A DNA stretch of 5,369 nt from Candidatus Jordarchaeales archaeon (GTDB lineage: Archaea > Asgardarchaeota > Jordiarchaeia > Jordiarchaeales > Freyrarchaeaceae): contig JAWAHN010000007.1 of the NCBI GenBank assembly GCA_038889235.1, positions 1 to 5,369 on the forward strand. The letters are read 5' to 3'. Below, piece by piece: positions 1,124 through 4,945 of the stretch. Under the pieces are notes generated by a model. That model made no database searches, was not told where the DNA came from, and was given only the letters and a program-made list of their open reading frames with translations. Numbering within the stretch: the stretch's first letter is position 1; each line of letters opens with the position of its first letter. The translations under genes and the position numbers were made by a program.

Positions 1124-4018
1124 ATGATCCCGGAGCCAACTGAAGACACTGTGACTAATCTTCTCGTTAAGGAGTTGGAGAAGTATGGTGTTAAGGCTGT
1201 ATCTTTTCCTAAGATTTCTACGCCCAGTGGTGTTAGAAAGCCTGACATTTGGTGCTCAAATAGCGGAGCATACGTCATTGAGGCTAAGTTCAAGGAGTCT
1301 GATCTAATTAAAGCTATAGCCAAAATTCAGAACGATTACATTAGATGGTTTGACGTTTTAGGTATCAAGGGCGGTTTTGCGGTTCTTTACCCTGAAGAGC
1401 TTATCAAACCTTTGCCTCCTGAAGTTTTAATGAGGAAGGCTCATCAGGCTAAGTTTAAAGTTGTGGCGATGTTTTCGCCGAAGGATGTTAGGAAAAGTTT
1501 TACGGTTTATGAGGGAACTTTGGCTGAAATTGCTAAGATACTTGCTGAGCATATTCTCACTCCTCCGGAACATGTTGAGCCAAGCGTGAATTACATAATA
1601 AAGGCATTGAGGGATTCAGCGGAATACATAACAGCTGCATTAAAACACTTGTCTGGGAGAGTGTTCGAGGATGTTTTTGGCGGGAAAGAAGTCTTTAAAA
1701 ACATTCTTCAATATGAAGAGCAGAAATATCCAGTTGAAACTTTAAGACTTGCTTCAGCCTATTTGCTAGTGAATCAGCTTCTTTTTTACCATGTTCTTTC
1801 TCGAAGAATGCCTGAAAAGTTCCCTGAAATTGACGCTGATGCTATTAAAAAACCAGCTGACTTAAATGTTTATTTTAAAAAAGTTTTGGATGTCAACTAT
1901 AGAGCGGTGTTTTCCTACGATGTAGCCTCAAAGATTCCGCCAAACTTCACGGACCGAGTTAAGGCTGTTATTAACGTTATCAAGGGCTTGTCTCCCGAAA
2001 AAGTGGGCGGAGATCTGCTTGGAACAATATTCCATGACTTGGTTCCTTTCGAAGTAAGAAAGACGGTTGGAGCCTTCTACACAAATGTCTTAGTTGCTGA
2101 ACTTCTTGCTTGGTTATCTATTGATAATCACAATTGCAAGGTCGCAGACTTTGCCGTAGGAAGCGGGGGCTTGCTCGTTGCTGCTTATCGAAGGAAACGC
2201 CATCTTTTGGAGAAGGAGAGAAAGTTCACCGAAGATGATCACAAACGGTTCGTTGGAAACGAACTTTTAGGCGTTGATATCATGCCTTTCGCCGCGAGTA
2301 TTGCTGCATGCCATCTCGCACTTCAATCCCCAGAGCATTTCACTAACAAGGTCAACATTGCGATTTGGGATTCAACAGAGCTTGAACCGGGCAGAACCAT
2401 TCCTTCAATAGCTAGCTTGAGATTTGTGCTTAAAGGGCAAACGACTCTTGAAATGTACCTTAAAAAACCCACTGAGAAATCCAAGGGCGTAGTGAGTCTC
2501 ACCGGGGAGATTCCCGAGGAGATTGTCCTCGAAAAATATGACGTTGTTATCATGAACCCTCCCTTCACAAGACAGGAGAGGATCCCCGAAGAATACAAAG
2601 ACTTATTATTTAAGAGGTTTAAGGACTACAAGGATTATCTTCATAGTCAGATGAGCTATTATGGCTACTTTGTATTGTTGGCTGACAGGTTTCTAAAGGA
2701 TAATGGTAGAATGGCGCTGGTCTTGCCAGCCACAGCCTTACATGTAAGGTCTGCGGAAGGACTCAGAAAACTGTGGGCTGAAAAATACCACGTAGAATAC
2801 ATCATTACTACATGGCATAGGCTCGCCTTTTCAGAAAGTGCGGTTTTCAGGGAGATTTTGCTGATTGCAAAGAAAACAAGACCTTCCAAGGATGCAGTTA
2901 CCAAAATCTGCGTCTTAAAAAGGCTTCCGGATAAGATGTCCAAAGCTCGTGAAATTGCAGACAAAATCAGAGAGCTGAAAAGCGACTATGAAGACGACGA
3001 AATTGCCGTTAAAATACATCCCTATGTAAAATTAACTGCTGATACAACTGACTGGTACAAATTCGTTTCCCTGAGCAATTTGAAACTTATAGAGATGTTG
3101 AATAACCTATTATCTTCTGAAAGGCTTGTCCCATTATCGCAGATTACAGAAGCGAAAGAGTGCGATCTAAGAGATTTCAAGTTCAAGGATTTTCACGGTT
3201 TTATCTTAAAGGATGCTAAGAGAATCCAAAGAAAAACTGATCACTGGTTTTTAGAAAAAGAAAAAGCAAATTCCATAGTGATTAAGCATAGTGAGTTCAT
3301 GCATACAATAGAAGTTCCATTAAATTGTCTAACTAGGGCGCTTAGAAGATTCTCCTATGTGAATACAATTGATGTAACAGAAAATTCAGATTACCTTATT
3401 CAGAGCTGGTTTGATAAAATACCGGAAATGGCAAAATACGCTCTATCATCAAAGGAACTTGATTCTCTTAATTCGAATGTTATCAGTTCATGGAAAAAGA
3501 GGTTTGAGAGAAAGAAAGCCCACTTGCTGTTAGCAAGAAGGCTTTACTTATCTTCTCCTGGTACGTGTTTAATTGCCTTTTACTCAGATGCTCCCATGGT
3601 GGGGGTTGATCTTTGGAGCCTAAGGGGGCTCAACAAAGAGGATGCAAAAATCCTTGCACTATGGCTAAACAGTTCCATAAACATCCTTCAACTCTTATAC
3701 CTTGGAGTTGCGTGCGAAGGACCATGGATGAAGATTCACGACTACATGTTCAACGGACTTCTCGTCCCGAATCCGAAAACGCTAACAATAGAAGAAAAAG
3801 AAGAACTACTTGAATTATTCAGAAAACTTGGAAAAGCGCCCTTTGAAAGCATAACAAAACAGCTAGAAAATGAAGACGAAAAAAGAAAAGCCATAGACAA
3901 AGCTTGGCTAAAATTACTTGGATACAAAGGAGATCCGGAAACATTCTTAACGCAAATTTACAGAGCTATTTTGGAAGAAATAAAGATTATTGAGCAATTA
4001 ATGCACGCGCGTGCATAG
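1124..4018 (+). CDS. Type IIG-like fused restriction endonuclease / N6-adenine DNA methyltransferase with C-terminal target recognition region (964 aa)
   Basis: Uninterrupted ORF. Nuclease motif P40-D41...E53-A-K55 (KPDIWCSNSGAYVIEAK). Helical linker region. MTase motif X (GAFYT), SAM-binding motif I DFAVGSG (aa 342-348), motif II GVDI, catalytic motif IV NPPF (aa 478-481, nt 2555..2566), motif VI-like FLKDNGRMALVLP. The I-before-IV order followed by a ~350-aa C-terminal region is the gamma-class / IIG layout. Specificity cannot be inferred. Confidence 0.93.
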   Translation: MIPEPTEDTVTNLLVKELEKYGVKAVSFPKISTPSGVRKPDIWCSNSGAYVIEAKFKESDLIKAIAKIQNDYIRWFDVLGIKGGFAVLYPEELIKPLPPEVLMRKAHQAKFKVVAMFSPKDVRKSFTVYEGTLAEIAKILAEHILTPPEHVEPSVNYIIKALRDSAEYITAALKHLSGRVFEDVFGGKEVFKNILQYEEQKYPVETLRLASAYLLVNQLLFYHVLSRRMPEKFPEIDADAIKKPADLNVYFKKVLDVNYRAVFSYDVASKIPPNFTDRVKAVINVIKGLSPEKVGGDLLGTIFHDLVPFEVRKTVGAFYTNVLVAELLAWLSIDNHNCKVADFAVGSGGLLVAAYRRKRHLLEKERKFTEDDHKRFVGNELLGVDIMPFAASIAACHLALQSPEHFTNKVNIAIWDSTELEPGRTIPSIASLRFVLKGQTTLEMYLKKPTEKSKGVVSLTGEIPEEIVLEKYDVVIMNPPFTRQERIPEEYKDLLFKRFKDYKDYLHSQMSYYGYFVLLADRFLKDNGRMALVLPATALHVRSAEGLRKLWAEKYHVEYIITTWHRLAFSESAVFREILLIAKKTRPSKDAVTKICVLKRLPDKMSKAREIADKIRELKSDYEDDEIAVKIHPYVKLTADTTDWYKFVSLSNLKLIEMLNNLLSSERLVPLSQITEAKECDLRDFKFKDFHGFILKDAKRIQRKTDHWFLEKEKANSIVIKHSEFMHTIEVPLNCLTRALRRFSYVNTIDVTENSDYLIQSWFDKIPEMAKYALSSKELDSLNSNVISSWKKRFERKKAHLLLARRLYLSSPGTCLIAFYSDAPMVGVDLWSLRGLNKEDAKILALWLNSSINILQLLYLGVACEGPWMKIHDYMFNGLLVPNPKTLTIEEKEELLELFRKLGKAPFESITKQLENEDEKRKAIDKAWLKLLGYKGDPETFLTQIYRAILEEIKIIEQLMHARA

Positions 4019-4413
4019 GTATCTCATGAAGGATCTCTCTAAGGTCATGTTTCCACCTCGGGACGTAGTAGAAGCATCTACGTTGGAGAGCTTTTACCTC
4101 TGAAGTAAGCTATCCAAGGTTAGCAGAGTTTGCTGAAGTCTGTTCAGGTGCAATTAATACTCGAGCACGGAGGTAGCACTGGCTAGGTTTATTCTTGAGA
4201 AGCAAAACGAAAGCTCAAACAAGTATGTAATGCAATTACTTTCCACCTTCCCGAGTCTACCTCTTTGTGAACTTGATTAGCGCATTACGTGCTTCTCTCC
4301 GGGTGCCTCCTTCCTCTGCTTTCCCTTTTTTCCTGGGTAGTTCGACTCCCGCTGCTTCTTCTCCTCTGATAGCCTCCGGTTCAGCCTCGCACGCTCTCGC
4401 AAGTTCTCTCTTA

Positions 4414-4497
4414 GATGTCTACTTCGGTGTTAAAGTAAGGAACTACGATAAAGCACTCGAGCTGGTGGGGCGCCTTGAAACACAAAAGGGACTGTAA
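4414..4497 (+). pseudogene. Possible 3' remnant of an unidentified gene
   Basis: Only the last 27 codons of ORF 4267..4497 look like real protein (DVYFGVKVRNYDKALELVGRLETQKGL*). The stop is followed 2 nt later by GGAGGT and an ATG, as at an operon junction. The family is not recognised. Confidence 0.3.
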
Positions 4498-4499
4498 AC

Positions 4500-4513
4500 G
4501 GAGGTTTGCTATG
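4500..4513 (+). promoter_or_regulatory. Shine-Dalgarno GGAGGT plus ATG opening an 18-codon ORF (4511..4567)
   Basis: GGAGGT at 4500..4505, 5-nt spacer, ATG at 4511; the frame reads MIAITMFQLFAPMPHPSA* and ends 17 nt before the array. Confidence 0.35.
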
Positions 4514-4584
4514 ATTGCTATTACAATGTTTCAACTATTTGCCCCCATGCCCCATCCCTCTGCATGATCAAAAAGTACGAAAAC

Positions 4585-4874
4585 CTTTCAATTCTCTCTA
4601 TTGTATTCTCGGAAGCGCTAACAACGCTACTGCTGTAGGCCTGTTGCACCTCTTTCAATTCTTTGTATTGGTATTCCTACATGCTGAAGCTGAGGAGGAT
4701 CAAGCGATTCTACGACATCTTCCAATTCTTTGTATTGTATTCCGCGAAGACATCATAGATGTCATTGTTGTTGATAAGTGGACCTTTCAATTTTTTGTAT
4801 TGTATTCACAAGCTCATGTACTCGTGTATCAGCGCCTTGATCCACGCGTGCTTTCAATTCTTTCTATTGTATTC
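4585..4874 (-). CRISPR. CRISPR array, 5 repeats / 4 spacers, crenarchaeal-type repeat (minus strand GAATACAATA(C/G)AAAGAATTGAAAG)
   Basis: Repeats at 4585..4608, 4652..4676 (1-nt insertion), 4719..4742, 4784..4807 and 4851..4874. Unique spacers of 43, 42, 41 and 43 nt. Orientation is inferred from the 3' ATTGAAAG end and the TATA-bearing leader on the right. Confidence 0.96.
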
Positions 4875-4945
4875 TGTGTGTGAGCTTTGATTTCGTCTCC
4901 TTAGTTTTGTTTACGAGGGTGGGGTTTTAAGCTTTAGGGTTGATC
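4875..4945 (-). promoter_or_regulatory. CRISPR leader with BRE/TATA (AAAGCTTAAAACCCC on minus, 4935..4921)
   Basis: Non-coding stretch adjoining the outermost repeat. The TTAAAA box (4930..4925) lies about 50 nt before the first repeat, which would put a start site about 25 nt before it. The distal limit of the leader is not determinable. Confidence 0.65.

Follow-up and report, generated by a model that had tools for sequence, protein, structure and literature searches.

The window analysed here is the entire contig C7 (5369 bases), one contig of a 2.14-Mb archaeal genome bin assigned to Candidatus Jordarchaeales. Its sole long open reading frame (ORF), at 1124-4018 on the + strand, as are all features given below, encodes a protein of 964 residues which, by sequence and predicted fold, is a single-chain type IIG restriction-modification enzyme and an ordinary member of that known enzyme type. 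What is new here is a conserved loop of the methyltransferase domain that has a core resembling the PCNA-interacting peptide (PIP box) and that structure models leave unplaced. We propose, tentatively and at somewhat less than an even chance, that this loop peptide really docks on PCNA, the archaeal replication clamp; both the contact with PCNA and its purpose are things that we infer from predicted structures and comparison. All readings in which the loop element is independent of PCNA, taken together, stand at about an even chance, and the probability left over is reserved for explanations outside those weighed below.

A conserved PIP-like peptide in a family-specific insertion

The peptide, QTTLEMYL (residues 439-446; 2438-2461; caa acg act ctt gaa atg tac ctt), lies between IAIWDS (412-417) and DVVIMNPPF (473-481), is preceded by K437-G438 and followed by K447-K448-P449, and fits the PIP consensus Q-x-x-[LIM]-x-x-[FYW]-[FYWL]. 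A first-pass annotation of this DNA had already pointed to it, and the position and the K/G and KKP flanks that it gave match the sequence exactly. Every hidden Markov model (HMM) alignment to solved gamma-class N6-methyltransferases is interrupted between approximately 397-422 and 463-466, and residues 418-471 (∼55 residues; 2375-2536), between motifs III and IV, therefore represent a family-specific insertion in the crossover from β-3 to β-4. The same annotation had described an insertion-like segment of ∼50 residues before motif IV, which agrees with these alignments, but it took IAIWDS for a post-motif-II region, whereas this is the gamma-class motif III, on strand β-3.

We aligned 105 full-length homologues of 49-84% identity (alignment A1). 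The core of the peptide is strongly kept in this set, with G438 present in 102/105 rows, Q439 in 100/105, L, I, M or V at position 442 in all 105, E or D at position 443 in 96, and F or Y at position 445 in 102, giving the family form G-Q-x-x-[LIM]-[ED]-x-[FY]-hydrophobic. At the last position, 446, most residues are aliphatic (L 24, V 21, I 20, T 11, M 9, A 8). Variation is seen at 440, 441, 444, and 448-453, with entropies of 2.1-3.3 bits, and 89 of the rows have a gap in column 447. Downstream of the motif, a linker whose length ranges from ∼5 to 20 residues across homologues leads to a second conserved element, K-G-V-V-S-L (residues 454-459; 2483-2500), in which K454 is found in 102/105 rows and G455 in all of them. 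A broader alignment of 150 sequences, with identities down to 27%, keeps Q in 107, L, I, V or M in 131, and F, Y or W in 105. Among 277 family members of at least 800 residues, 110 match the pattern Q..[LIMV]..[FYW] followed by a hydrophobic or small residue within the loop.

Exposure and the predicted complex with PCNA

The first AlphaFold model of the protein (mean predicted local distance difference test [pLDDT] score 86.6, predicted template modeling score 0.81) contains a single long segment of low confidence, residues 430-464 (bases 2411-2515), where pLDDT falls below 50 and the block means are 34, 31, and 29. A second model, built from an 80-row, more diverse alignment (pLDDT 87.6), places residues 431-445 and 447-459 below 50. 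Over the two models, pLDDT for residues 430-464 is approximately 30-45. Both form a one-turn helix at 442-446, the conformation that PIP boxes adopt when bound. In the predicted fold, QTTLEMYL is thus exposed in a flexible segment and not buried. Burial of the motif, which the first-pass annotation had named as an argument against docking, is not what either model predicts, the motif lying in the sole long low-confidence segment of both. Since the flanks of the loop are conserved, its low pLDDT may reflect the need for a partner rather than constant disorder, and a portion of the loop, to judge by these flanks, may become ordered in some state.

The genome bin carries one PCNA gene (C1:650317-651069, 251 residues). 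We predicted a complex between this protein and the loop using an alignment of 28 PCNA sequences (A2) and residues 422-470 of alignment A1. The co-fold score was 0.77 (individual runs 0.77, 0.78, and 0.74) against 0.49 for the best of three controls; of 80 solved complexes, 58 reach the mark applied to such scores, as do 2 of 110 mismatched pairs. The runs share at least 78% of their contacts, with a partner pLDDT of at least 47. In the predicted interface, loop residues 436-446 face PCNA residues 41, 44-48, 124-129, 226-227, 243, and 245-250, which make up the canonical PIP site. The hydrophobic pocket receives L442 and Y445, and Q439 lies beside the C-terminal tail of PCNA, so that the model reproduces a textbook PIP pose, which is to say a likeness to one. 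The pocket residues are widely conserved in the 28-sequence alignment. Two other proteins of the same genome provide a comparison: the C terminus of FEN1 is a canonical PIP box, QTSIDRFF, which resembles QTTLEMYL, and a PolB-like ORF (888 residues) has LTRLESWI at its end, a PIP-like tail that lacks the Q.

Distribution of the motif-keeping clade

A pattern scan of 185,579 GTDB species genomes returned at least 572 relatives, of which the best 80 were examined. Among these, all 21 loci of the clade that keeps the motif are archaeal, and they span Archaeoglobi, Thermoproteota, Bathyarchaeia, Nitrososphaerota, Hadarchaeota, Thermoplasmatota, Aenigmatarchaeota, and Asgard archaea. A quick maximum-likelihood tree of 70 rows groups the sequences that keep both WDST and the motif into a single clade with a support of 95, made up of 15 sequences, all archaeal (Archaeoglobi, Thermoproteota, Bathyarchaeia, Nitrososphaerota, Hadarchaeota, and Aenigmatarchaeota); members from Thermoplasmatota and from the Asgard genome Jordarchaeum are partial, were too short, and were left out of the tree. 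Opposite the motif-keeping clade are archaeal "GSLDFL" types together with a single bacterial clade, which comprises 44 rows. P0083 and P0095, two close homologues with a bacterial label, lie on contigs of metagenome-assembled genomes, 7.5-10.5 kb of defence genes that are uninformative as to the host. The wide spread of the clade in archaea, with none seen in bacteria, fits a dependence on an archaeal host factor, though it is no proof of one. No conserved neighbouring gene that might serve as an alternative partner was found among the neighbourhoods inspected.

Homologues of 39-43% identity are also encoded on plasmids of cultured archaea, namely, Halorussus lipolyticus DT80 (WP_276302657.1; L122:2149-5091), where the loop reads QRGLGDY and keeps Q-x-x-L-x-x-Y, and Methanothermobacter tenebrarum pRMAS01 (WP_248565342.1; L123:2125-4995), where it reads QQTLF. 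These cultured Halorussus and Methanothermobacter plasmids offer experimental handles whichever reading of the loop is correct.

A possible link between self-protection and the replication fork

In the mechanism that we propose, the loop of the methylase domain would present G-Q-x-x-[LIM]-[ED]-x-[FY]-hydrophobic as an internal PIP-box-like peptide, which would insert into the hydrophobic pocket and the Q-pocket of PCNA, below the interdomain connecting loop. Docking would tether the enzyme to freshly replicated DNA, and new, unmethylated host sites would be methylated before the enzyme's own nuclease acts on them. Alternatively, or additionally, the clamp might give the enzyme a platform on which to slide in search of its sites. 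How single-chain restriction-modification enzymes methylate new host sites before their own nuclease cuts there, and still cut foreign DNA, is an open problem. PCNA docking is plausible and has a rationale in the need of single-chain enzymes, where they modify only one strand, to distinguish new host sites from foreign ones, a problem set out in the DrdV preprint (10.1101/2021.01.06.425610).

The wider claim, that a widespread, archaea-only clade of stand-alone type IIG enzymes is wired to the replication clamp by an internal PIP box, with self-protection and perhaps restriction coupled to the fork, is offered tentatively and with less assurance than the docking itself. If it is true, a clamp-docking loop would be a simple physical answer to the open problem, with the enzyme riding PCNA behind the fork; restriction-modification would join the list of PCNA clients, the coupling of DNMT1 to PCNA would have a prokaryotic, defence-related counterpart, and the spread of the clade over archaeal phyla, with none seen in bacteria, would be explained.

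Our full-text literature search found no published case of a restriction-modification enzyme that binds PCNA or the bacterial beta clamp. What comes closest is a putative adenine methyltransferase copurified with NucS in Pyrococcus abyssi (PMC4929162), and type IIG enzymes have been described on Asgard mobile elements with no link to PCNA (PMC11529989). Among archaeal PCNA clients, PIP boxes have been reviewed for Fen1, PolB, the large subunit of RFC, NucS, and EndoQ (PMC4929162), and an internal PIP is known in the DP2 subunit of archaeal PolD (PMC7101311). Like these clients, the peptide studied here follows the consensus Q-x-x-[LIM]-x-x-aromatic-hydrophobic, is acidic at its fifth residue, has a predicted short helix within a flexible segment, and is predicted to use the same pocket on PCNA; it differs in that the eighth motif residue is aliphatic or small in most homologues. 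With the coupling of eukaryotic DNMT1 to PCNA, which serves maintenance methylation at the fork and for which the first-pass annotation gave the sequence QTTITSHF, it would share the logic of a DNA methyltransferase brought to new DNA through a PIP box. The two enzymes belong to unrelated classes (C5-cytosine versus N6-adenine), the position of the motif differs, and the enzyme described here is fused to a nuclease and defensive, and nothing suggests common descent.

Observations that weigh against docking on PCNA

Several observations weigh against PCNA docking and are gathered here. The bare match to the PIP pattern has no significance, the pattern being common: the loose form Q..[LIM]..[FYW][FYWL] arises in 7% of 20,000 shuffles of the 964-residue protein, and it has 50 matches in the 1666 crude ORFs of the genome, or 0.09 expected per 964 residues. 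The first-pass annotation had itself cautioned that short motifs arise by chance; QTTLEMYL rises above chance because it is conserved in homologues.

That conservation itself has two features which do not favour a clamp-binding peptide. The first is the loss of Q439 in deeper archaeal branches; many homologues of 35-45% identity have R, K, N, T or M in its place and keep L-[DE]-x-[FY] (e.g., RRPTLDMF). PIP-like motifs without the Q exist in other PCNA clients. The second is that the neighbouring loop segments 426-438 (IPSIAxLxxVLKG) and 454-459 (KGVVSL) are kept at least as well as the motif, which, as judged from the alignment, is not the pattern of a lone linear motif set in a variable tail. 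The first-pass annotation had suggested that the Q, L, and aromatic positions should be conserved in homologues while the rest of the loop varies, and this was borne out in part: the three positions are conserved in the 105 homologues while 440, 441, 444, and 446-453 vary, but residues 426-438 and 454-459 are conserved too and the Q does not persist at 35-45% identity. Family members lacking the loop motif show no compensating gain of terminal PIP boxes (2 terminal matches in 277 proteins), a result that favours neither reading. Moreover, most archaeal PIP clients carry the peptide at a free terminus, whereas here it is internal and tethered at both ends within the catalytic domain, an unusual setting among PIP boxes.

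The co-fold also has to be read with caution. The complex prediction that the first-pass annotation had proposed passes its controls in the canonical pose, but the pass may reflect memory of solved PCNA-PIP complexes, and the control that scored 0.49 on PCNA is an unrelated 49-residue protein. In addition, the PCNA used may be that of the wrong host because the GC content of C7 differs (42%, versus 47-51% for three large contigs), its CRISPR-like 24-base repeat, described below, was not found on other contigs of the bin or in 30 related genomes, and no close orthologue of the gene was found in same-genus genomes (30 related genomes, the best match, of 45% identity, being in an order-level relative). 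C7 may not belong to this genome and may be a mobile element or wrongly binned; the PCNA of the true host may then differ from the one that we folded.

A further warning comes from bacteria, which have no PCNA. Twelve Chloroflexota genes, most of them on chromosome-scale (0.8-4 Mb) bacterial contigs, carry LGSL[DE]FL-x-G-Q-[AP]-R-L-A-x-W-P at the same place, aligning with IASLRFVL-K-G-Q-T-T-L-E-M-Y. These sequences show that the loop can hold such a motif without PCNA. In the tree, the Chloroflexota G-Q-x-x-L-x-x-W-P group is nested inside the bacterial clade and is not sister to the archaeal clade, so two independent origins are more parsimonious than one origin followed by at least four losses. 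The archaeal ASLRFVL aligns with the GSLDFL element, which is kept across all bacterial relatives and the whole superfamily, and bacterial subgroups each have their own hydrophobic mini-motif at the position of the peptide, between GSLDLL and NPPF (GEVKPLIPLH, VQFALS, xxTLFNT, FxILAIT, and GQARLAxWP; L026-L081). Together, the mini-motifs and the superfamily-wide GSLDFL suggest, from the alignments, that the insertion acts as a larger unit, which may fold or bind beyond where AlphaFold can place it. The first-pass annotation had raised the idea that bacterial homologues carry a beta-clamp motif of the QxxLF type instead; none with a clean motif turned up, the Chloroflexota clade having G-Q-x-x-L-x-x-W-P, and no clean QL[SD]LF was present among the subgroup mini-motifs. 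Some of these mini-motifs loosely recall clamp-binding peptides (QLxLF and QxxLxP).

Taken as a whole, PCNA docking is partly supported by these predictions, with three of the checks proposed at the outset in its favour and one a warning.

Alternative explanations for the loop

Only a little less likely than PCNA docking, in our estimate, is that the insertion with its motif is a docking element of the enzyme itself, ordered only in the working state, and that the likeness to a PIP box is incidental. The face formed by L442 and Y445 would then pack on the nuclease or helical domain or on a second protomer assembling on DNA, as DrdV and MmeI must for cutting. This would account for the conservation of the whole insertion, where I426, P427, and G455 are invariant and A430, L432, V435, K454, V457, and L459 conserved, for the alignment of ASLRFVL-KGQ..L..Y with bacterial LGSLDFL-xGQ..L..W and the separate hydrophobic mini-motif of each bacterial subgroup, and for the deeper branches that dispense with the Q while the L and the aromatic residue stay. 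A segment that is conserved yet unplaced in a monomer model is also what one would predict for an interface dependent on a partner or on DNA. However, AlphaFold usually finds conserved intramolecular packing, and here it failed to do so with two alignments, while the linker after the motif varies freely in length, which would suit a tethered peptide more readily than a rigidly folded element. According to the tree, the bacterial look-alike arose independently (two gains, versus one gain and at least four losses), and the confinement of the clade to archaea would be left unexplained. Were the loop an oligomerisation or regulatory element of this kind instead of a PCNA ligand, it would still be a switch, conserved and unmodelled, in a large family of enzymes.

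A second alternative, which we regard as improbable, is that the loop contacts DNA or acts as a lid over the cofactor, with a basic, glycine-flanked helix becoming ordered on the DNA backbone or over the S-adenosylmethionine (SAM) pocket. The loop does begin directly after motif III, whose D416 lies at the adenine-binding end of strand β-3, it contains the basic residues R433, K437, K447, K448, K452, and K454, and loops that order on DNA are common and conserved in gamma-class methylases. Against this, conservation falls on hydrophobic or acidic residues (L, E/D, and F/Y), with the basic ones among the variable positions; besides, the topology of the class I methyltransferase fold would put the β-3 to β-4 crossover on the side of the β-sheet remote from the catalytic cleft.

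That the peptide is a functionless chance match, its conservation reflecting a general constraint on a short helix, is very improbable and was rejected as a full explanation, for although the pattern is expected in 7-9% of proteins of this size, the Q, L, and aromatic positions are kept in 95-100% of the 105 homologues, among neighbours with entropies of 2.3-3.3 bits.

Architecture and relatives of the enzyme

The ORF product has, in order, a predicted N-terminal nuclease, an HsdM-N-like helical domain, a gamma-class N6-adenine methyltransferase, and a TaqI/CamA-like target-recognition domain. Residues 310-610 match the Pfam families Eco57I (69 bits, cut-off 25.3; 7e-19), N6_Mtase (59.2 bits, cut-off 20.4), and MmeI_Mtase (31.3 bits, cut-off 27; 1.5e-07), and the best PADLOC matches are type IIG nuclease-methylase fusions (REase_MTase_IIG). 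The best Foldseek match of the AlphaFold model is BpuSI (3s1s; E value 1.5e-24), followed by PglX, CamA, M.BseCI, and DrdV. With VIA-align, the model aligned to CamA over residues 314-934 (Z score 28.1), to M.TaqI (Z score 22.8), and to BpuSI over residues 154-962 (Z score 24.8), and alignments to HsdM-type subunits start at approximately residue 153. The target-recognition domain is in the same chain, the alignments with CamA, M.TaqI, and M.BseCI running through residues 887-945 with the DNA-recognition domains included (Z scores 22-28).

The methyltransferase motifs occur in the expected order, from I to IV. Motif I, DFAVGSGG (342-349; 2147-2170), forms the SAM-binding loop, with D342, G346, S347, G348, and G349 invariant in A1; motif III, IAIWDS (2357-2374), has W415 and D416 invariant and a strand at 412-414 in both models; and NPPF of motif IV (478-481; 2555-2566), the catalytic loop, is invariant at all four residues. 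A nuclease motif of the PD...E-x-K type, P40-D41...E53-A-K55 (1241-1288), lies in the beta-rich N-terminal domain of the AlphaFold model, and D41, E53, and K55 are each present in at least 90% of the 105 homologues. No Pfam or PADLOC match fell within residues 1-300 or 620-964 alone. The N-terminal nuclease is thus predicted from the conserved PD...E-x-K motif and the BpuSI-like order of domains, the VIA-align rows beginning only at approximately residue 150. No second, companion methylase gene is present on C7.

BpuSI/Eco57I-type IIG enzymes (3s1s; PF07669) have the design that is predicted here, in which one chain combines an N-terminal PD-(D/E)xK-type nuclease and a gamma-class N6-adenine methyltransferase, joined by a helical connector, with a target-recognition domain at the C terminus. 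They are only ∼13-15% identical to the enzyme described here, whose archaeal clade differs further in its conserved ∼55-residue insertion with the PIP-like peptide, and no link to a clamp or PCNA is described for them in the literature that we searched. The type IIL enzymes MmeI and DrdV (PMC2731913; PMC4833311; 10.1101/2021.01.06.425610) are likewise stand-alone nuclease-methylase fusions without a partner methylase and face the same problem of protecting newly replicated sites; the MmeI_Mtase match in Pfam and the presence of DrdV among the fold matches add to the likeness. Type IIL enzymes differ in that they are thought to require several unmodified sites and oligomerisation, and a clamp motif has been reported for none of them.

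Surroundings of the gene

No Rfam family was found in the window. The flanks of the gene at 1-1123 and 4019-4584 contain no ORF that reaches 100 residues (the longest has 99), which is an unusual amount of apparently noncoding DNA for a 5.4-kb archaeal contig. Downstream, at 4585-4874, are five co-oriented, slightly degenerate copies of a 24-base repeat, CTTTCAATTCTTTGTATTGTATTC, with a period of 65-67 bases, where none would be expected by chance. Its reverse complement ends in ATTGAAAG, resembling CRISPR repeats of the crenarchaeal type. A lone copy with two mismatches is found upstream, at 447-470, so that the restriction-modification gene is flanked by repeats. An 18-base inverted repeat with 94% complementarity, at 989-1006 (CTCAAGCTTAAAACCCCA) and 4920-4937 (TGGGGTTTTAAGCTTTAG), encloses both the gene and the repeat array.

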